Source of the DNA: Escherichia phage CMSTMSU
Sequence record: MH494197.1
Strand: one strand, 5' to 3'
DNA length: 64,000 bases
A model generated the notes under the pieces. That model was not told where the DNA came from, searched no databases, and worked only from the letters and a program-made list of their open reading frames with translations. Shown one piece after another: positions 12,272 through 63,159 of this stretch; within the stretch, counting starts at the first letter, position 1, and each line of letters opens with the position of its first letter. The position numbers and the translations under genes were made by a program.

Positions 12272-15200
12272 ATGTACTCGATTAAAACAGATCTAGATAT
12301 AACTGGTGGTGCAACGGTTGGTAAAGATCTTCTTGTGAAAGGCGATGCAGTATTCAATAAAAATCTAACAGTTAATGGAACTGTAACTTTTGCTGACGCT
12401 GTATTCACTGCAATTGAAGCAGGAACTGTAGACATTTCATCTACACTAGATGTTGCTGGTAAAGCATCATTGAATGGTGGAATTGAAGTTCATGGTAATT
12501 CCGTAATTGGTAATTTGCCTGTTGGCTCTGATACTGCAACGATTAATTCTAATGCACAATTCCAAAGCCCAGTATCAATGGCAGGTAACCTAACACAAAC
12601 CGCTGGCACTGCTGTACTAAAAGATACCCAAGTGGCATCAATGGATGTTCTTGGAACTTCTTCATTTAAAGGTAATATTACTGCTGAAACTGGCACTACC
12701 GCAGCATTTGACAAAATAACTGCAACTGATGCAACATTCACAAACACTGCAACTACTGATATCACATCAACTGGAACTGCAAACTTTAAAGATGTGAATA
12801 TTTCCGGTACACTAGGTGGAACATTTAGTCTATCTGATGTTAATGCAACAACTCTAACTGTTTCTGGTTTAACCAGTCTACAAGGTGGTGTTACATTAGG
12901 TTCCAACATTACTGGTGTGAATAGTAGTGCAAACTTCCGTGATATTAAAATTGGTTCCAATGCTGCAAACACTAACTACCGTTTGAGCTTTAACTATTCT
13001 GCTCCAAGTCTTCGCCCAACTGTAATTCTACAGAACGAAATCCAATCAGAATTGATGTCTCCAGCTACCCTAAGTGTATTGAAAACTGCATCTTTTGGTG
13101 ATTCGTCATTATCCACTTTTGGTATTACTGGTAATGGTCTAAACAAACTAGATTACCTAACAGTATCTGGTAACTCTGTTCAAGATCCAGCAACTCCACT
13201 ATTACAAGTAACTTCAGGTAAAACTAAAGTTCATGATTTCGAAGTAACAGGAACTGCAACTATTCCTAACATTGAAAGTACTGGTACTGCTAATTTTAAT
13301 AACATCAACGTATCTGGTACACTCGGCGGTACTTTCAGTCTTGATGATATTGAAGCAAACACTCTAACTGTTTCTGGATTAACTAGCCTTGTTGGTGGTG
13401 TAACTTTAGGTGCTGATATTTCCGGTGCTAATAGTACTGCTAATTTTAAAGCAGTAAGTTTAGGACAAAACGCAGCCGATGCTAACGTTAAGTATGGTTT
13501 TGCTTATTCTGCCCGGTGCTCGTCCAACTGTAATTCTACAAAATGAAATTCAGTCTGAACTAGTATCTCCAGCAGTACTAAATGTACAAAAACTGCTACC
13601 TTTGGTGATGCATCTCTTGCAACCTATGGTATCACAGGTAACGGTCTAAACAAACTAGATTATCTATCTATTACTGGTAATGGTACACAAAGTCCAGCTA
13701 CCCCACAACTACAAGTAGCTGGTAAATCAGTACTAAATGATGTTGAATTCACTGGTACTGTAACTGGTCTAACTGTTGATGTGAGTGGACAAGATCTAAC
13801 TCCTAAATCAGTAGTTGCTGCTGAAGCAATCAAAGGTCAAACCCTTGAATCAGTTGGTCAAACCACCGTAGGAACTAACCTACAAGTTGGTGGAACTGCT
13901 AATGTTGTTGGTGCACTAACTGGTACTGCTGCTACCTTCACTGGTGATGTAAGTGCTGCTAAAGGTACTTTCAGTGGTGATGTTAGCGTTACTGGTCAAA
14001 CTGTAACTGTACGTGATTTAGTAGTAACTGGTACAACTACTGGTGTAACTGCCCAAGCTGATGTTGATGGTCTTGATATCGCCCCAAATAAAGTTGATGT
14101 TACAACAACACTATCTGTTGCTGGGGACACTACTTTAGCTGGCCTAACTGCTAGTTCAGTAACCAGTACTGGTGATGTTACTGGTGCGTCTGTATCTGGT
14201 AATACAGTAACTGCGGCTGGTGCACTATCTGGTGGTTCTCTTGCAGTAACTGGTGCTGGTTCTATGGCTTCACTAACTGTTCCAAGTATTACTGGTGACA
14301 CTACTTTTGCTAATAACGTAACTATTACTGGAACACTAACTCCGAGTAGTATAGATTTAAGCACTACTGATGTAAGTGCTGCTTCTTTAACAACTACTGG
14401 TAACGTAACTGTTGGTGGTTCTCTTGCAGTAACTGGTGCTATTGATTTGTCTGCTGCTGATGTAGTAACAAAATCAGTTAGTGCAACTAACCCAAGTACA
14501 TTTGGTGTAATTAATGCATCTTCTGTTGTCGCAACTGGTGACGTTTCAGGTGGCACTCTAACTACTACTGGTGCAGCGAAAGTAGGAACACTAACTAGTA
14601 CTGGTGTAGTATCTGGTTCGCGTTTGTCTTCTGGTACTGCAACAATCTCAACTTCTGTAACAGTTCCAACTTTACAAGCTGAAGCTGCTGGTGCTGGTAC
14701 ACTAAATCTAGCAAGTAATGTTGTCGCGGCAAAGATCTAACTGTCACTGGTGTATTCAAACCTGAAGGTGGTCTTGACCTAACAACTGTTGATATTACTG
14801 CAAACTCACTAACTACTACTGCTGATGTTAATGTTGGTGGAAACTTAGTAGTTGATGGTACTTTTGACCTAAGTGCTGCTGATGTGTCTGTGAAATCTCT
14901 TGCAAGTGCAGAGACAATTACAAGTGCTGGTGTTATTACCGTTACCGATTCAACCAATACTAGTTCGTTACCTAAAATTACTTCAACTGATGCAACACTC
15001 TTTACAGTAAATGCAGGTACTATTAATGCAACTGGCAACAGTGTACTACAAAGTGTATCAGCTACTCAAGTAACTGCAACTAGTGCTGAATTGACTGGTG
15101 TTGGTCTTGGTCTTCAAGTCGATAATGATGCAAACGTTGGTGGTGCATTATCTGTTGGTGGAATCGCAACTGTTGGTTCTTTAACAACAACTGCTGCTTC

Positions 15201-29962: not shown

Positions 29963-31288
29963 TTAACCAAGAGAGCGTGCTTTACGTACTAGGTCAGAGT
30001 ACTTCATAACGAAGTCTTTAAACGCTGGTACATCTTTAATCGTAATCGCTACTTTATGAAGCGTGATGGTACGAATCGCCAGTACTGCCAGTTCTGCTTG
30101 AGTTGCAGAGAAGTTATGGTCTAGGAAGGTGATGAAGTTGTTGCACAGCTTACCCCAATCTTCCACTGGTAGACGTTGTTCTTGCTTCTCATTGTAGAGG
30201 TCGATAATTTTGTAAACCAGATTCAGAGTGATGAAGTAGTTCGCGGAAATATCGAGCGAAGCATCAATCTCTTTAATCTCACCCTGTAGGATGGACATGG
30301 TATCTGGTAGTTTAGCTACGTTATCAACATACTCGATGTATTCAGTTGCTACGCCTTCACCAACACGACCTGCAATCATCGCACGGAACACTTCTTTATC
30401 AATGTTCTTAACTTTCTTCAGATCTTCGTAGCGTGCTACTGCTTCCCATGAACGTGGAGAAGTACCACCACAGTGAGAAGGATCTTGTGGGCTAAGGGTG
30501 TTGAAGTGTTTAGCACCAGTGTTGTTGATGAACGCTACAGTTGCTGGGTTCAAACGCTTGCCAATCGCATAATCGTTAATCCAATCTTGATGATAAGGAA
30601 TCATTTCGATGTGGGTCATACGGTCACGCAGTGGTGTAGCTAGAGAGAACGTTACACCGCCATCAGTTTCACGGTTACCTGCTGCGAGAATCAGTGCAGT
30701 CTTAGGTAGCTTCATCTCACCAACACAACGGTCGAGGATTAGCTGATAAGACGCTGCCTGTACAATCGGCATTGCAGAGTTGATTTCGTCAAACAGAATA
30801 ACACCTTTCCAATCTGGAGACAGTTTCAGTACTTTAGGTGCTGCCCACACAACTGCTGTTTCAGCGATGTAATCTTGTGCACTAGCCAGTTCAGATTCAA
30901 TCAGTTGCTTACCATCCATATCAAGGAACACTTTCTCTGGAACTGGGATACCACGAAGGTCACTTGGTTCAATCTGAGACAAACGGAAATCGATAAAGTT
31001 AGTGTCTTGGTCGATTAGTTTGGCTTCAAACGCTGCCAGTTCACGGCGAAGTTGATCAGCATTTTCAGTATCAGCTTCGATTTGTTGTTTCATGAACTCA
31101 ATTTTGCCACGTTATCTTTACGCAGTGGGTAGTTCTCATCAGCGTATTGACGTGCGATAGCAGATTTACCGATACGGGCTACCCCAAATCATCAGGCTAT
31201 CTTGAATCATGTCAGCCAGTGCCATTGCTTCTTTAGCTTTCTTAGGAGTCAGTTTTACGTTCAGGATATCGTTGTTTTGAGTAGACAT
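29963..31288 (-). CDS. MoxR/CobS-like AAA+ ATPase (frameshift near N-terminus)
   Basis: Walker B VILFDEINSA, sensor-like ATPLRDRMTH in the 376-aa ORF; GKS-containing Walker A-like segment (IGKSAIARQYA) in a shifted frame upstream; ATG 31288 with RBS AAAGGAAA. Confidence 0.7.
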
Positions 31289-57782: not shown

Positions 57783-57810
57783 TTTATTTCTCCAAAGAAA
57801 AGGAGAGTCA

Positions 57811-57832
57811 CAATGACTCTCCATATATTTTA
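57811..57832 (-). terminator. intrinsic terminator (perfect 9-bp stem)
   Basis: GGAGAGTCAttgTGACTCTCC followed on the minus strand by TTTTCTTT. Confidence 0.5.
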
Positions 57833-57837
57833 TTGTA

Positions 57838-58268
57838 AAACTTTGAGTTTGTAAAGCATTCCTTCACAAAAACTCATAATGTCTTCTAGCGTGTTAGTAC
57901 TACCATAGTCTTCAGCCTCTTCTAGCATAGCATGAATGGCTTTACATTGACTAACATATTCTTCAAGAATTGGTACACAATCCTCGATAGGGTAAAACGA
58001 TAACTGTTACCAGTACCTACCTGCAATGCCCGCGAGTGTTCATAATACCCTCTACAAATGCATCAACGTACTCAGGTAACTCTTTGTATAGTTCATCCAA
58101 TTGTAGGTGCTTCGTGTAGAAATGGCTCTGTAAATGCCAGTTGTGAGCAGCAGCACTTAAAAATAAACTATTCTCAATAAATGTAAGTAGTACTTCATCA
58201 TAAGAACTATCTTCTTCAGTATCTCCGATAAAGTCCATTACATGTCGTAAATCATTAATATTTTCCAT
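57838..58268 (-). CDS. Dps/ferritin-like four-helix-bundle protein (one frameshift)
   Basis: AAAHNWHLQSHFYTKHLQLDELYKELPEYVDAFVEGI resembles the Dps helix pair; RBS AAGGAGAG. Confidence 0.4.
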
Positions 58269-58444
58269 AAATCTCTCCTTAGAGTTATTCTATGGTATTT
58301 AGTTAATAATAAAGGTAACTTCAGGATTCATTTCTGAAACTGCATTTCTCTTACTTCTATTCCATAGTACTCTATTGTTATATAATGAAGAATCACAAAT
58401 TATAAGTAAGCAATTCCTTAATCTACTTACAGTACTTTGATTAC

Positions 58445-58726
58445 TTAAATCAGTTTCTGTAACAAAAATACATTATCAGGAACTTCTACAGGAATTGATT
58501 TATCAAAGAAGAAAACTACAATAGGTCTGTTTGTATGAACTAAATTAATAAAGTCTAAAATACTGTTATAAAATTCAGTTCCTTTGTTTAAACTTAATGG
58601 ATCTTTGATTCTCTTCAAATAGGTCTGAACCAAATTATGATCGCTTTTGATTTGATACTCAAAATATTCTTTGAATAACATTTGTGTTAATTCAGATGTA
58701 TTGGATATTTTCGTTGTGTTACTCAT
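58445..58726 (-). CDS. hypothetical protein, 93 aa
   Basis: ORF only. Confidence 0.3.
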   Translation of the reverse strand: MSNTTKISNTSELTQMLFKEYFEYQIKSDHNLVQTYLKRIKDPLSLNKGTEFYNSILDFINLVHTNRPIVVFFFDKSIPVEVPDNVFLLQKLI

Positions 58727-58918
58727 TCACTTCGTTCTCTCGTAACTCAAGAAGTCACTACGTTTACTTCGTAAACTAGTTCCTTCTGAAAATGATAATG
58801 TACTTTAAAAGCTTGACGGATTTGTTGAGGACTATTTCATCCCCGAGGAAGAAGGTAATAAAAAGAGACAATTAAGTCTCTCTGACGATGATGGCATCGG
58901 ATATTATCGAATTGCGAA

Positions 58919-59097
58919 TTTCTCAAATTTTGGACGGATCTTTCCTGTACCAAAATTTAGAGAAAAGCGGGTTGCTCGGTTTCTCTCTATCGCAGTCATA
59001 TGCAACGGTCGCTGGTCTTTTCATCAACAGCACTCAGTACTAAACTCTATTCGATCAAAGTAGTACCTGTTCTCAAATTTTGGACGCAACTTTCTTG
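58919..59097. repeat. two copies of a ~28-nt direct repeat (TTCTCAAATTTTGGACG...) about 150 bp apart in a relatively GC-rich noncoding stretch
   Basis: 58919-58946 atttctcaaattttggacggatctttcctg and 59070-59097 gttctcaaattttggacgcaactttcttg; each contains its own hairpin. Confidence 0.5.
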
Positions 59098-59295
59098 TAA
59101 AATCGCGTCCACAATCCTGAACTCCTTAGCAAATTCGTAAGGTGCGAACCTTATACATCTATCTAGGAACTCTCTGTGTGCTTGGAGTTCTTTATACAGC
59201 CGTGTCGCCGTGATTCGTGGTCTTATCTCGTGTTTGTTTGATTGCCAGTACTCTAACAGGTTTCTTTTGCTGTTCGCTACAACGGTAAAGCTCAT
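59047..59295 (-). CDS. hypothetical basic protein, 82 aa
   Basis: ORF with RBS AAGGA; preceded at about 59374-59405 by CGGGACA-N14-TGATATAAT. Confidence 0.35.
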   Translation of the reverse strand: MSFTVVANSKRNLLEYWQSNKHEIRPRITATRLYKELQAHREFLDRCIRFAPYEFAKEFRIVDAILQESCVQNLRTGTTLIE

Positions 59296-59565
59296 CTATC
59301 CTTTACATTTTCAAGAGAAGTAGGTTCTCATTATCCATTTTTCAATGTCCGTTGTCATTTTACAATATACATTATATCACTAGGATGTATTATGTCCCGT
59401 TACATGTATACCTTTTTCAAATCCTTGGAACAACGGTCAAAATTGTGTTGATGAATTCGACATCCTCTTTGATATTGGAGTCTATAGCATCATTCTCGTT
59501 TCTTGTTGTGTTCCTGTATTTGTGTTCAGGGTGATTGTATACCACCTTGACTACATTATTTAGGT

Positions 59566-59811
59566 CTACAAAAATGACGATTTTTGCGTATAGGAAGCCT
59601 GAAGCTTGATGAGTTTACCATCGTTTTGTAGATTAGTCTTGTGAATTAGTTCTTCAATACCATCTAAATGGCTATAGCTATCCTGTTCTTTGACGAATGT
59701 AACAGTTACCAGTACTGACTTCTCATCTCCAAAGTCAGAGATATTTTTAACAGCACTGATGATTTCTAAGTTTGAAAAATCTAATTCTTTTAGCATTACA
59801 AATATTTCCAC
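59566..59811 (-). CDS. hypothetical protein
   Basis: ORF only. Confidence 0.3.
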   Translation of the reverse strand: MEIFVMLKELDFSNLEIISAVKNISDFGDEKSVLVTVTFVKEQDSYSHLDGIEELIHKTNLQNDGKLIKLQASYTQKSSFL

Positions 59812-60152
59812 AAAGTTCGATAAGTGATAATTTCTTCTCTGGTAACAGAAACTTCATAGCACTTAACACCATCAGTTTCATTTCTGAATGGTTCTGCTGG
59901 TCTATCTTCTGTTAAACCTCGTTCATACGTACAATGATAATATTTGTTCGTGTTCATGTCAAGAAAAACTAGATCAAATTCTTCTGTCCATCGTCTATGC
60001 CCTTTACTTTCATTACTAATGATTTTGTACTTAACATCGGGATTGAATGATTCAGTACTGTCATCCCATGTACCATAGTCAGTATATTCATCATCTTCAT
60101 CTAACTCTGCCAGATGCCACATTAACTGTGGTAAAAAGATTTTAGATTTCAT
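59796..60152 (-). CDS. hypothetical acidic protein
   Basis: ORF only. Confidence 0.35.
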   Translation of the reverse strand: MKSKIFLPQLMWHLAELDEDDEYTDYGTWDDSTESFNPDVKYKIISNESKGHRRWTEEFDLVFLDMNTNKYYHCTYERGLTEDRPAEPFRNETDGVKCYEVSVTREEIITYRTLWKYL

Positions 60153-60402
60153 TTATTTTCTCCAAAAATAGGGACTCGATTTCTCAAGTCCCTATCATAA
60201 CATATTAATTGTGATTATTCAATTTCTTTTGTTCTTTTTAGAGCTTTCATATGTCAAAATCACGAACATGCCATATATGGTCGGTTTCCCATAGTTCTGT
60301 ACGTAAACGGCGTTCTTCCAATTCTTCTGGAGTAGGAATTTTAGATTTCTTCTTATCTTTATTGAAAAATCATTCATATGTTCTTCCAGTAGATTTCTAC
60401 CC

Positions 60403-60807
60403 TTAACTTTTTCGGAATTCATCTACTGATTCAGTTTTATTAGAACGAAGACTGTTACAACGTGAACACATGGTGTTGTAATTTGACTCTAAATCAGGTC
60501 CACCCTTAGATGCTAGTTGGTTATGATCTACTGTCATCAGTACTTCATATAGACCACAAACTGCATAGACATTTAAGTGAGGTTTACCATATACCGGATC
60601 AGTGCTATGTGAACGCTCAATGCGAACTTCAGTGGCTTCAATACCACACGCAACGCATTTACAATTCTTAACGAATGTAAGTACTTTTTGTGGGAAGTAT
60701 CGGAAAGTAACACCGTTATATGTATAGCGTTTCATCTGTGTACTTCTTTGATTTAACTCATCAAGAAGTGATAGTTTGGCAACATAGTAGACCTGATATT
60801 TTGACAT
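60403..60807 (-). CDS. HNH endonuclease
   Basis: HNH core TVDHNQLASKGGPDLESNYNTMCSRCNSLR plus upstream Cys pair CKCVAC. Confidence 0.7.
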   Translation of the reverse strand: MSKYQVYYVAKLSLLDELNQRSTQMKRYTYNGVTFRYFPQKVLTFVKNCKCVACGIEATEVRIERSHSTDPVYGKPHLNVYAVCGLYEVLMTVDHNQLASKGGPDLESNYNTMCSRCNSLRSNKTESVDEFRKS

Positions 60808-60919
60808 TTTTAATCCTCGGATTTAATTTTAACCTTAACATCTTGATTTTGTAAATCACGAATAGTTTTAATTAATGCATCATGTTTTAGTGCACAGTCA
60901 TTGTACATTGCATCCCATT

Positions 60920-61123
60920 TTACGAGTACTGCAAGAATTTCAGCACCATCATATCCTCTGAACCCGTTTTATCGACCATGATTTTACTTGGTAGTGGTGT
61001 ATTTTCGTCACAACGTTCAAGTAAGATTTCTTGTTCTACAATTGGTTTAGGTTGATACTTAATTTCTTCAGCACAACCACTAATTAATAGAAAAGAAATT
61101 GCAAATACTAAAGCGTATTTCAT
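60920..61123 (-). CDS. small lipoprotein (o-spanin-like candidate)
   Basis: Signal peptide plus lipobox MKYALVFAISFLLISGC; Pro-containing mature part; start ATG overlaps upstream stop (ATGA). Confidence 0.5.
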   Translation of the reverse strand: MKYALVFAISFLLISGCAEEIKYQPKPIVEQEILLERCDENTPLPSKIMVDKTGSEDMMVLKFLQYS

Positions 61124-61492
61124 TTGAATTTATTCCTCGCTGCAAGGGAATTCTGTTTAAGTTCATTCAGAAGTTTAACGCCATCTTCATCTAGACATAC
61201 GTTTTTGTAAACTTCTCTTTCTACTATAATAGGCACTTGTGTCTCGATAACTTTAGCATTATCTTGCATTATCTTTTTGGTTTCTATATAGTTTTTGCAT
61301 TTTCTTGCTGCATCTTAGCGAGTGCAGAATCAACTTTCTTTTCTATTTTTGGTCAATACTTTCTTTATAACCAGTATAATAAGTATTTGCTGACCATCCA
61401 CCGTAAACACAACCTGCCATTACTCCTACTACCAAAATTGGTTTCCAATATGGTATTAAAACTTTTGAAACAATAATTTCTAGTACACTCAT
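61121..61492 (-). CDS. type II membrane protein with N-terminal TM and charged helical domain (i-spanin-like candidate; frame-broken)
   Basis: MSVLEIIVSKVLIPYWKPILVVGVMAGCVYGGW then Lys/Glu/Gln-rich segment; RBS AGGAGA. Confidence 0.4.
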
Positions 61493-61717
61493 AATAACAT
61501 CTCCTATAGTTGGTAATATTATTTAGAGTGTACTATATTATATGTTTACAACATTTTTGAATATGATCTACGAGTTTATACAGTTTAGTGTTTTCATTCT
61601 CGTATTCCAAATCAACTTCAACTTTGAATTCTTCTTCAAGTTCCATGATCATTTCAATCCAGTCAAGCCAATCGAATTTAAATTTTTCCACGACTTCACA
61701 TTTAGTAAGATGGAAGT

Positions 61718-63159
61718 TCATTGATACATCTTTTTCGGATGCATTTTGTCGCGACTTGTAATGAATTTGACAATTGCTTTTTCAACGTCAGTTAGTTCAC
61801 GTGTGCGATATTCTGGTTCAAGATACCATTCGCCATTATTGATAGCTTCCAACGAAAGTCTAAGTTCATGCATTAGTTTATAACGATCAGTACTTTTATG
61901 GATGCGGTTAACTTCGCGATTCAGTACACGTAGTGCGTCTTTGATTTGTTCGTTTAGCATAACAATCCTCTTATTTTTTCTGTACCATTGCATTTCACGG
62001 ATATCTAATAGTACCTTCGTAGCCAACTTTATGTTTGGTCGCTTCGGTAGATGGGTCTTATGATACGCCACATTTCGGATGTAGCCTTTTCGTTGAAATA
62101 ATCCATAACTTCTTGATACAACCACTTCCCGTTACGAATGTCCATCAACATAGCAGCATCCGGTCGGTGAACTTGGATGATGCCAGTTTCAAGTGCTTCC
62201 TGTGCTGTATTCAGCAGCCTGATTATGCATAGCATGTTTGCAGTCATAACCGTGGTGTGATTCAAGAATAGCACGTTTGGCATTACGATTCTGCTTCCAT
62301 TTGTGATAACTCTTACGGTTCTCACTATTTTCTTTGTATTCCTTTTCATTGAATTTTACAATGAGTTCAGGACGAACTTTCAATTCTTCTGTAGTACGTT
62401 CTTTGTTGAAGTAACGTAGTGAACCATCAGCATTCACTGTACTTTCATTCGGGTTGATAATTACCCCAAAGATGTTTTCACCGTAATGGATTAGTTCATA
62501 TCCAGAATTGTAATTCAATAAATTGAAATCACGATCTAATACTTTATCAGTACTATAATTATGTACTAAACGTACAAAATGATATTGTTTCAATGCTTGT
62601 GTTGAAACTTAATAAGTATCACGCATGTATTTTTCAAAATCAATTTTTGTAGCATTGAATGGGTGAAGATTGGATTTATTCAAACGTCAGAATATCATTC
62701 GTCAACTGGATGTTCTTCTAAAATTTCATTTAGTTTACGTTCAGCAATTCGTTCCTTATCGAGCCAGCCGTGGTGATTAGACATACGCTTAACCTGATTG
62801 TATGCATATCCACTGTATGAGTGTGCAATCTTTGAACTCAATAATTGCTGATTGAATGAGCGTAGATAGTCATAGATTTCAGTACTTTCTACGATGTGTT
62901 CCGGTTTAACCCATAGTGATTCAAGAATGTTTGGGTTAGCTTCAGTATGAACTTAAGTACTGATTGATTTCATAAAATTTAGTATCTTCTTCAGAAGTAT
63001 CTGAAACTTCCTTAACATTAAAAAAGGAGTTAGGATATATTCTTTGTTTGCAAGGAAGATACCACGATAATCTGTATCACTTTCTGGTGTGCTTGTGCCA
63101 TACGCCTGTGAACCAGCTAAGTGTTTCACAATAGTTTGTTCTAGAAAATTGTTTTTCAT
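61718..63159 (-). CDS. nucleotidyltransferase-fold (Pol-beta-like) protein, about 480 aa (heavily frame-broken)
   Basis: N-terminal LAGSQAYGTSTPESDTDYRGIF fits the G[GS]x9-13 D-h-[DE] motif; ORFs 62953-63159, 62189-62593, 62029-62349, 61718-62125 on the same strand. Confidence 0.35.

Follow-up and report, generated by a model that had tools for sequence, protein, structure and literature searches.

The intergenic gap and its neighbours

The stretch of DNA analysed here, 64,000 nucleotides (nt) of sequence record MH494197.1 (Escherichia phage CMSTMSU; hereafter the window), comes from a jumbo coliphage that resembles Asteriusvirus and falls in the 121Q/PBECO4 group. Between two genes of this window lies a gap of 673 nt, at positions 58727-59399, which is filled by a conserved element. 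We consider, with a probability of about 0.9, that this gap represents the gene for a large structured non-coding RNA, roughly 500-600 nt long, on the minus strand. The genes around the element are also on the minus strand. In phage 121Q the corresponding gap is found between gp515 (annotated as "structural protein") and gp517, and in the window it is bounded as follows.

59400-59402, minus strand: stop codon of the gp515 homologue
58724-58726, minus strand: ATG start codon of the gp517 homologue

The 1.6 kb around the element is 98-99% identical to the Asteriusvirus coliphages EC.P1, Ecwhy_1, fEgEco12 and WPEC5, and 93.5% identical to 121Q. Alignment to WPEC5 shows 34 deletions but no insertion in the window over 5.1 kb (57797-62698), mostly in homopolymers. 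These deletions look like sequencing errors of an unpolished long-read assembly, and the whole window is probably affected. Owing to them, the homologues of gp515 (59417-59811), of gp517 (58445-58726 rather than about 58299-58726) and of an HNH endonuclease (60219-60807) are split or cut short.

A preliminary description of this DNA had reported a GC-rich, open reading frame (ORF)-free stretch of about 300 bp with two direct repeats and hairpins. The repeats and hairpins proved to be real, while the GC signal was marginal. That is, sliding-window analysis gave a GC content of 39.1% for the element and 40.7% for its core, against a window mean of 37.0%, and 27% of all 600-nt windows were at least as GC-rich as the element (maximum elsewhere, 45.8%). 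The apparent contrast arises mainly because the adjoining downstream gene is very AT-rich (25-31% GC at 58200-58700). The GC peaks of the window at 30100-31250 (up to 45.8%) and 62000-62300 (44.5%) stand clearly above the supposed island. As for the lack of ORFs, we found no conserved ORF in the gap, although its true length is 673 nt rather than about 300. Relatives without the deletions of the window likewise have no conserved ORF in it, so that correction of the sequencing errors yields no gene there.

Copies of the element in related phages

We searched for the gap by sensitive blastn, then by two conserved-motif scans of IMG/VR, and then by profile searches including nhmmer. By blastn the gap was found in 70 jumbo-phage records, at several places per record and mostly where nothing is annotated; the hosts of these phages are Escherichia, Salmonella, Klebsiella, Cronobacter, Pectobacterium, Erwinia, Serratia, Yersinia and Xanthomonas. 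The profile searches gave 53 non-identical full-length copies with pairwise identities of about 49-100%, from Asteriusvirus, Mimasvirus, Eneladusvirus, Alcyoneusvirus, Munch-like phages, metagenomes and contigs of metagenome-assembled genomes (MAGs). The core of the element in the window scored 425 bits with nhmmer, and the most conserved part of this core (58964-59031) is 88% identical out to RaK2. Pattern scans of bacterial genomes and metagenomes gave mostly chance matches, of which nhmmer retained only jumbo-phage-like contigs. Three contigs from Buttiauxella/Enterobacteriaceae MAGs (L069, L114 and L161) carry a full-length element with extra insertions (740-790 nt); these contigs probably come from jumbo phages and were sorted into the MAGs by binning.

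Every Rak2-like jumbo phage examined carries the element at orthologous sites, and the comparison with related phages thus showed that the segment is kept across this group. Each genome has three or four paralogous copies, at about 30-40, 175-190, 250-270 and 330-340 kb; those of 121Q are at 192.9, 247.5 and 326.9 kb. Each match in GAP32, CBB, Yen9-04, Kaldavass, Serratia BF, Munch and RaK2 lay within a gap of 600-900 nt holding no credible gene, and very short hypothetical ORFs are annotated at the match in two of those records. The copies group by genomic position across genera, and therefore the paralogues are old. The genera that carry the element at orthologous positions share less than 30% average nucleotide identity (PMC13070987). 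Between the two RaK2 copies at about 280 kb (L009) and about 191 kb (L015), several long middle and 3' stretches including the tail are identical while the 5' domain differs, a pattern which suggests recent gene conversion between paralogues.

Protein clustering showed that the flanking proteins are conserved within a positional type and unrelated between copy types. Furthermore, the 121Q copy at 326.6-327.2 kb, which is of B-type, lies on the plus strand, whereas the genes to either side of it (endonuclease VII on one; gp595 and the baseplate hub on the other) are on the minus strand, and it is thus convergent with its downstream genes. The other B-type loci have no same-strand ORF of at least 60 aa within 500 nt downstream, and often none within more than 1 kb. 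Since the neighbours differ by copy type and one type is convergent, the element is independent of its neighbouring genes. We also considered whether the extra ORF-free flanks at B-type copies could be further RNAs, and saw no need for them: in 121Q a gene of the opposite strand occupies the upstream flank, and downstream, too, the annotated genes begin with opposite-strand ones.

The preliminary description had noted an HNH endonuclease gene about 1.3 kb away and had suggested that the region might be the scar of an inserted element. The HNH homologue is indeed present at about 60.2-60.8 kb, frameshifted in the window. Its distance of 0.8-1.4 kb and the slightly raised GC content could be taken as signs that the element is a scar or cargo linked to a homing endonuclease, or a degenerate intron. 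However, the element occupies orthologous positions across genera, its three or four paralogues stand in unrelated contexts, with no HNH gene annotated beside the three other loci, and it has its own conserved promoter. It is not distributed patchily, only short imperfect inverted repeats flank it, and it is intergenic and so interrupts no host gene; nor did any group I or group II intron model or other Rfam family match it. The idea of a mobile element is already contradicted by this distribution, and we regard it as extremely unlikely.

Conserved base pairing on the minus strand

In order to examine the base pairing, we used an alignment of 50 sequences. RNAalifold predicted 57 pairs, of which 38 showed double (compensatory) changes; with one added crossing hairpin the structure comprised 61 pairs in 14 helices. 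As controls we used 500 shuffles, and also slid the pairing partners by 1-3 columns. In the real alignment 98.1% of the cells were paired, as against 79.0% after shuffling and 38-46% after sliding. Compensatory changes were seen at 42 of the 61 pairs (shuffled, 30.5; slid, 12-17), and 586 cells carried a double change (shuffled, 162; slid, 40-59). None of the 500 shuffles reached the observed value of any of these three measures. The covariation score was 0.567, compared with 0.07-0.11. As for the strand, the alignment contains 207 G.U cells, and the canonical pairs amount to 98.1% in the sense (minus) direction but 91.6% in the antisense direction.

The core consists of at least 14 helices and two pseudoknots. 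A covariance model of its 3' domain, built without the window sequence, matched the window at 58880-59067 with 112.7 bits (E 3e-28). The parts of the core are as follows, all on the minus strand and in the order of the RNA.

58881-59364, minus strand: RNA core, about 480 nt, ending in the invariant ...CAUCAUCGUCAG (nhmmer, covariance model and covariation)
59349-59355, minus strand: 5' strand of P1, ACAACGG, which pairs with the H3 loop CCGUUGU (59279-59285) as pseudoknot 1
59299-59318, minus strand: hairpin H1 with the loop GAAAAnGUA; compensatory changes in all 5 pairs
59276-59296, minus strand: invariant GAUGAG and, after it, hairpin H3, in which the loop serves as the 3' strand of P1; 100% paired, 2 of 3 pairs covary
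59269-59273 with 59196-59200, minus strand: helix H4; 100% paired, 4 of 5 pairs covary
59256-59259 with 59208-59211, minus strand: helix H5; 100% paired
59167-59190, minus strand: hairpin H6; compensatory changes in all 6 pairs, with all four Watson-Crick pair types
59121-59166, minus strand: conserved junctions CUnGAUAGAyaUAUAAGG and UAAGGGAG, invariant or near-invariant columns of the alignment
59070-59119, minus strand: modular hairpin at position 1, holding the repeat copy 59070-59099
59039-59066, minus strand: hairpin H7 with the loop AUCGAAU (59049-59055); 99% paired, 4 of 4 pairs covary
59049-59055 with 58906-58912, minus strand: H8 (pseudoknot 2), the H7 loop paired with AUUCGAU; 7 bp, 7 of 7 covary, 99.4% of cells paired
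58964-59031, minus strand: most conserved core, comprising H9, the invariant GACCGUUGC, H10, the 5' strand of H11, and H12 (GAGAGAAACnGrGCAACCCGCUUUC)
58920-58963, minus strand: H13 (3 of 3 pairs covary) and the modular hairpin at position 2, holding the repeat copy 58920-58949
58906-58917, minus strand: 3' strands of H11 (58913-58917) and H8 (58906-58912)

In pseudoknot 1 the mean length of the contiguous pairing was 6.96 bp against 4.74 bp for shuffled loops, and at least 10 different compensatory versions of it occur; in the alignment its strands fall in columns 112-119 and 198-206. Helices H4 and H5 (59196-59273) enclose a variable arm together with the conserved sequences AAGAAACCyGU and CACGGCrAyrCGGC. 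The segments between the helices are nearly invariant: GAUGAG, AAGAAACCCGU, CACGGCAAUGCGGC, UAUAAAG, GAUAGACAUAUAAGG, UAAGGGAG, GACCGUUGC and GAGAAACnGrGCAACCCGCUU. In the window, the junction at 59121-59166 is one G short (deletion at 59126) and reads UAAGGAG, and 3 nt of the 3' strand of H12 are missing (deletion at 58964).

We next consider whether the gap might instead hold several very small protein genes, because ORFs of 23-62 aa are annotated there in some records (121Q gp516; WPEC5 CDS0465-0468; Yen9-04 g347/g348). The hypothetical coding sequences (CDSs) annotated over the element, which together with Kaldavass CDS0296-0298 span 23-86 aa, disagree in strand and position between records. 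The product of 121Q gp516 (51 aa, opposite strand) has a reading frame that is broken by stops and frameshifts in genera outside Asteriusvirus. The longest ORF per member has a median of 56 aa, and the differences in length between copies are not multiples of three. These short CDSs are very likely spurious, and small proteins as the content of the gap seem to us hardly credible.

The direct repeat as a hairpin module

The direct repeat of the preliminary description was confirmed at 58920-58949 and 59070-59099, where 27 of 30 positions are identical with an exact core of 17 nt. The repeat is 30 nt long rather than 28, and the first of the coordinates given for it was off by one. The 17-mer has no further occurrence in the 64 kb. 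With up to 3 mismatches, 0.24 matches to the repeat are expected by chance, and 3 of 100 shuffles gave at least two. Taken alone, the repeat is only moderately significant, and it is the comparative data that make it real.

Both repeat copies sit within hairpins, in agreement with the internal inverted repeats described earlier. In the RNA sense the repeat, UACAnGAAAGnUnCGUCCAAAAUUUGAGAA, forms the loop and the 3' arm of the hairpin. The loop of the module is conserved (UACAAnAnAGnUccGUC in the repeat; family consensus UACAAUAUAGAUCCGUC; loop motif UACAAUAUAGAUCC). Across the family the module is placed after UAAGGGAG (position 1), within H13 (position 2), or at both. The Asteriusvirus copy in the window has it at both positions, and this gives rise to the direct repeat. 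The positional orthologues in GAP32, CBB, Yen9-04 and Kaldavass have the module at position 2 only; position 1 in the positional orthologues of Mimasvirus, Eneladusvirus and Erwinia phage Kaldavass is taken by a short hairpin of the GCCAGAAAUGGC type. Most other types of paralogue have it at position 1, and the Serratia BF copy at about 30 kb and other methylase-linked copies have it at position 1 only.

Two 30-nt direct repeats lying 150 bp apart, with promoter-like sites at both ends of the gap, could also be operators or other protein-binding repeats between two promoters, so that the region would act purely at the level of DNA. Protein binding sites had been among the earlier suggestions. 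Against this, the repeats have the form of hairpin modules, of which some homologues have one and some two, while in others the place is shifted, and the compensatory base pairing, with its G.U pairs, is found for one strand only. The repeats appear to be a movable peripheral hairpin module of an RNA and not a pair of operators, and we consider a purely DNA-level region very unlikely. A CRISPR (clustered regularly interspaced short palindromic repeats) array or a set of iterons, which would have at least three regularly spaced repeats, was not found either: only two copies exist, 150 nt apart, and their number and position vary between homologues.

Promoter and 5' end

A promoter-like sequence stands directly upstream of the core.

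59371-59400, minus strand: promoter with the -35-like sequence ACGGGAC and the extended -10 sequence TGATATAAT (59371-59379); 10 of 12 positions match, with TG

The spacing in the window is GGGACA-16-TGATATAAT (that is, GGGACA-16-TATAAT with TG), and the -35 overlaps the stop codon of the gp515 homologue. The relatives have CTGGACA or TGAAACG as the -35-like element. The promoter of the family is TGAAAC(G)-N13-TGnTATAAT, with the -10 sequence in 49 of the 50 members and the -35-like sequence in 48. In CBB, "Promoter 1" is defined as TGAAACG-N13-TGnTATAAT (PMC5259590, Table S6), a class reported mainly before genes for DNA synthesis (PMC5259590). By sequence match, the promoter of the element is of the sigma-70 extended -10 type and belongs to this class (TGnTATAAT with a TGAAAC-like sequence about 13-16 nt upstream).

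A motif scan of the window for TGnTATAAT gave 16 sites on the minus (coding) strand and one on the plus strand. This strand bias seems to fit the phage-specific promoter class of CBB and GAP32 with its TGAAACG -35-like sequence. The minus-strand sites are as follows.

59379, 55376, 53079, 50223, 49730, 47320, 47255 and 43737, minus strand: TGnTATAAT
37173, 33853, 31555, 31464, 28418, 5368, 2675 and 2263, minus strand: TGnTATAAT (remaining sites)

The 5' end of the RNA would lie about 7 nt past the -10 sequence. In eight methylase-linked copies (L013, L007, L011, L018, L036, L012, L039 and L045) a perfect hairpin with a U-run directly follows the -10, for example GGACAGUAUGAUGUACUGUCC-UUUUUUAAUU. 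Lying at the predicted 5' end, this hairpin could act in attenuation or stabilise the RNA; the copy in the window lacks it.

Terminator-like hairpin, G-rich block and tail

Three further features lie toward the 3' side of the core.

58857-58886, minus strand: terminator-like hairpin GAGAGAC-uuaauu-GUCUC(U)C with a U-run
58808-58855, minus strand: G-rich hairpin block UUCAUUCCCC-ugc-GGGGGGAUGAAAuaGUCCUCAACAAAUCCCGUCAAG; family form CCCC-loop-GGGGGGAUGAAAAUGnCCUCAACAAAUCUCGUCA, in 50 of 50 members
58721-58771, minus strand: tail hairpins, with rAACGnAGUGA as their loop motif (at 58755-58765 and at 58727-58737); the ATG of the gp517 homologue lies within the second hairpin

The first of these is the GAGAC-aattaa-GTCTC hairpin already noticed in the preliminary description (about 58866-58881), and a T-run follows it on the minus strand. 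It has a GAGAC/GUCUC stem with only 3 G-C pairs and a 6-nt loop, and is followed by UUUUUAUU; a terminator scan called no terminator here. By inspection of the alignment the hairpin, which resembles a weak terminator, is present in 31 of the 50 members; most copies of A-type (methylase-linked) and of D-type (330-340 kb) lack it, as do some others. The CBB counterpart is missing from the published list of CBB terminators (PMC5259590). The G-rich block of the window is damaged by deletions of 5 nt and 1 nt. Between the block and the tail hairpin is an AT-rich spacer of variable length. The exact tail loop GAACGnAGUGA occurs nowhere else in the window, and the tail stems covary across the family (GUAC/GUAC, UAAC/GUUA, GAAU/AUUC, AAAU/AUUU and others). 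After the tail, many phages have a TTGACA-type -35 for the next gene (Porf_524 in CBB).

These features raise the question of whether the element is a cis-acting leader RNA, which would control the downstream genes by attenuation at the terminator-like hairpin or by processive antitermination of the HK022 put/EAR type. Three of the four copy types have the element in the same orientation as the genes that follow it, and in the members that have no terminator hairpin transcription should continue. Furthermore, GAUGA and AUCnCGUCA are each present twice, which permits alternative pairings, and the tail hairpin in the window encloses the start codon of the next gene. On the other hand, the downstream genes are unrelated between copy types, and the tail is followed by a separate promoter of sigma-70 type (-35/-10) in CBB, where it is Porf_524, and in many of the other members. 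Known antitermination RNAs are 70-120 nt long, in contrast to about 500 nt here. The B-type copy of 121Q is convergent with its downstream genes and the other B-type loci have no same-strand ORF of at least 60 aa within 500 nt downstream, and thus the unit cannot in general be a leader. We therefore consider this explanation unlikely.

Another explanation is an RNA-primed replication origin, in which the structured transcript, made from the promoter, would stay hybridised to the DNA at the G-rich block or the AT-rich spacer and prime the leading strand. By analogy with T4 oriF/oriG or ColE1 RNA II, the four copies would then be multiple origins of the 350-kb genome. The dispersal of four copies per genome, the invariant run of six G on the RNA-like strand followed by an AT-rich stretch of variable length, the association of the promoter class with DNA-synthesis genes in CBB, and the presence of T4-like replication proteins, UvsW and RNase H in these phages (PMC5259590) would all agree with it. 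The element is like T4 oriF/oriG in having several dispersed sites per genome, and like ColE1 RNA II in its predicted promoter-driven non-coding transcript of about 550 nt with a G-rich segment near the 3' end. The length of ColE1 RNA II itself resembles that of the RNA of about 550 nt considered here. However, neither the ColE1 nor the T4 transcripts have an invariant pseudoknotted fold of several domains, and for a T4 origin a promoter together with an unwinding element suffices, with no need of a conserved RNA fold. A role as primer would leave the invariant junctions and the two cross-genus pseudoknots unexplained. Within the window the cumulative GC skew has no turning point at the element, and no iterons or antisense regulator were evident, though no systematic search for them was made. 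An origin is an unlikely explanation in our judgement; if it were true, it would give the first map of replication origins for the Rak2-like clade. For the invariant, doubly pseudoknotted fold of about 480 nt, a functional RNA is a better explanation than either a cis-acting leader or an origin.

Comparison with known RNAs

Over the whole window, Rfam 15 gave no match at the gathering score. With E values up to 10, the element gave only chance-level matches to models of small nucleolar RNA, microRNA and small RNA, and nothing was found inside the element in 13 related loci. The covariance-model search proposed in the preliminary description thus placed the element in no known family. In particular, the models for group I and II introns, GOLLD, ROOL, HEARO, OLE, raiA, RNase P, transfer-messenger RNA (tmRNA), 6S RNA and hammerhead in Rfam 15 stayed below the gathering score at the element. 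A scan for tRNA and tmRNA genes found none in the window nor in nine loci holding copies. Two resemblances were considered and rejected. The order GAUGAG...CGAA recalls the hammerhead ribozyme, but the element has no Rfam hammerhead match, its intervening segment is the loop partner of P1, and the position of U4 of the hammerhead core is read as A. Similarly, GCAACAGAGAGCAAACCG and GGUAAGGG bear a short resemblance to motifs of M1 RNA, but they are not collinear with it and no RNase P model matched the element.

The nearest kind of RNA is GOLLD and ROOL, which the element resembles without being a member of either. GOLLD and ROOL are large ornate RNAs common in phages and prophages, and have been studied by cryo-electron microscopy (10.1101/2024.12.08.627333). 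They are, like the element, several hundred nt long and phage-borne, with many covarying helices, pseudoknots, highly conserved junctions and no linked protein gene. The element differs from them in that it has no match to their sequence or structure by cmscan; that it is confined to Rak2-like jumbo phages of Enterobacterales and close relatives; that it occurs as three or four diverged paralogues per genome, each with the phage-specific promoter, G-rich block and tail hairpin; and that no tRNA gene is found in the nine scanned loci.

Phage PA5oct, a distant relative, has four "lncRNAs" (long non-coding RNAs) defined by RNA sequencing, which are ORF-free and 236-619 nt long, two of them being very abundant (PMC7318152). 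They are like the element in being ORF-free regions, four per genome, and the PA5oct regions are transcribed; unlike for the element, no structure has been proposed for them. We detected no homology to the element in ncRNA001 and ncRNA002 by nhmmer, or in ncRNA001-004 with the covariance model. A 911-nt unannotated gap of PA5oct (L051:5811-6721; 12,810-13,720 of the record) gave two weak covariance-model matches (E = 0.11 and 9). Since it contains no family motifs, this gap is probably non-coding DNA unrelated to the element. The packaging RNA (pRNA) of phi29 is also a phage-encoded stand-alone structural RNA, and its hairpin loops make intermolecular contacts. It differs from the element in its length of 174 nt, its single copy and its unrelated sequence, and the Rfam scans, whose library is believed to include a pRNA model, gave no pRNA match at the element.

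The RNA class was found neither in Rfam 15 nor in the searchable literature, the coverage of which leaves out one 2026 preprint on the mining of non-coding elements ("Minerva"). The genome papers of CBB (PMC5259590) and fEgEco12 make no mention of the element. A search of the same literature for a transcriptome of any phage that carries it found none.

Proposed role of the RNA

A small RNA had been the first of the earlier suggestions. An RNA seems indeed to be the right kind of product, although the scale was wrong: the whole gap of about 670 nt is one conserved unit with a core of about 480 nt. As to its function, we think it somewhat more probable than the other possibilities taken together that the element is a stand-alone gene for a structured RNA acting in trans. 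Judging from the promoter, the host RNA polymerase would transcribe the element as a separate unit. In the predicted structure, the core of about 480 nt would then take a compact tertiary fold closed by the long-range pairings. We suppose that the RNA would act in trans during infection as a stable RNA, that is, as a scaffold, a component of a ribonucleoprotein (RNP) or a ribozyme, and that it would not be the regulator of one particular neighbouring gene. The modular hairpin would most likely serve for a tertiary or intermolecular contact or for protein binding.

Several points weigh against this proposal. The transcript and its ends are predictions from the sequence. The terminator-like hairpin is lacking in 19 of the 50 members. 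The hairpin of the G-rich block (helix 14) is 99% paired, but all of its changes are from C-G to U-G and therefore give weak evidence of pairing. The G-rich block and the tail are conserved although they lie downstream of the terminator-like hairpin; conserved and covarying sequence beyond that hairpin means that the RNA may be longer, or may read into the downstream genes in some copies, and such read-through would allow a role in cis. Finally, several deletions of the window fall at positions that are invariant in all other copies, and if these are real and not errors, the copy of the window would be defective.

Significance

The hypothetical proteins that dozens of GenBank records place over the element are very likely spurious, which is of practical importance since therapy or biocontrol has been suggested as a use for some of these jumbo phages. 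The element is tractable for study, because it is carried by culturable phages of E. coli, Klebsiella, Salmonella, Cronobacter, Erwinia and Yersinia. The four diverged paralogues per genome offer built-in covariation and a means of genetic dissection, and the promoter is also recognisable.

To our knowledge, only about a dozen classes of bacterial and phage RNA longer than about 400 nt with complex conserved folds are known. Those large complex RNAs whose roles have been solved are ribozymes or the cores of RNPs, and the others are long-standing puzzles. We see about an even chance that the element is a new class of complex RNA, about 500-700 nt long and comparable in rank to GOLLD, ROOL and OLE, and that the Rak2-like jumbo phages maintain it as a paralogous family of four members with a biochemical role of its own. 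Candidate roles would be a ribozyme, a hetero-oligomeric scaffold that assembles itself through the loops of the modular hairpins, or the RNA subunit of a phage RNP that takes part in replication, packaging or counter-defence.

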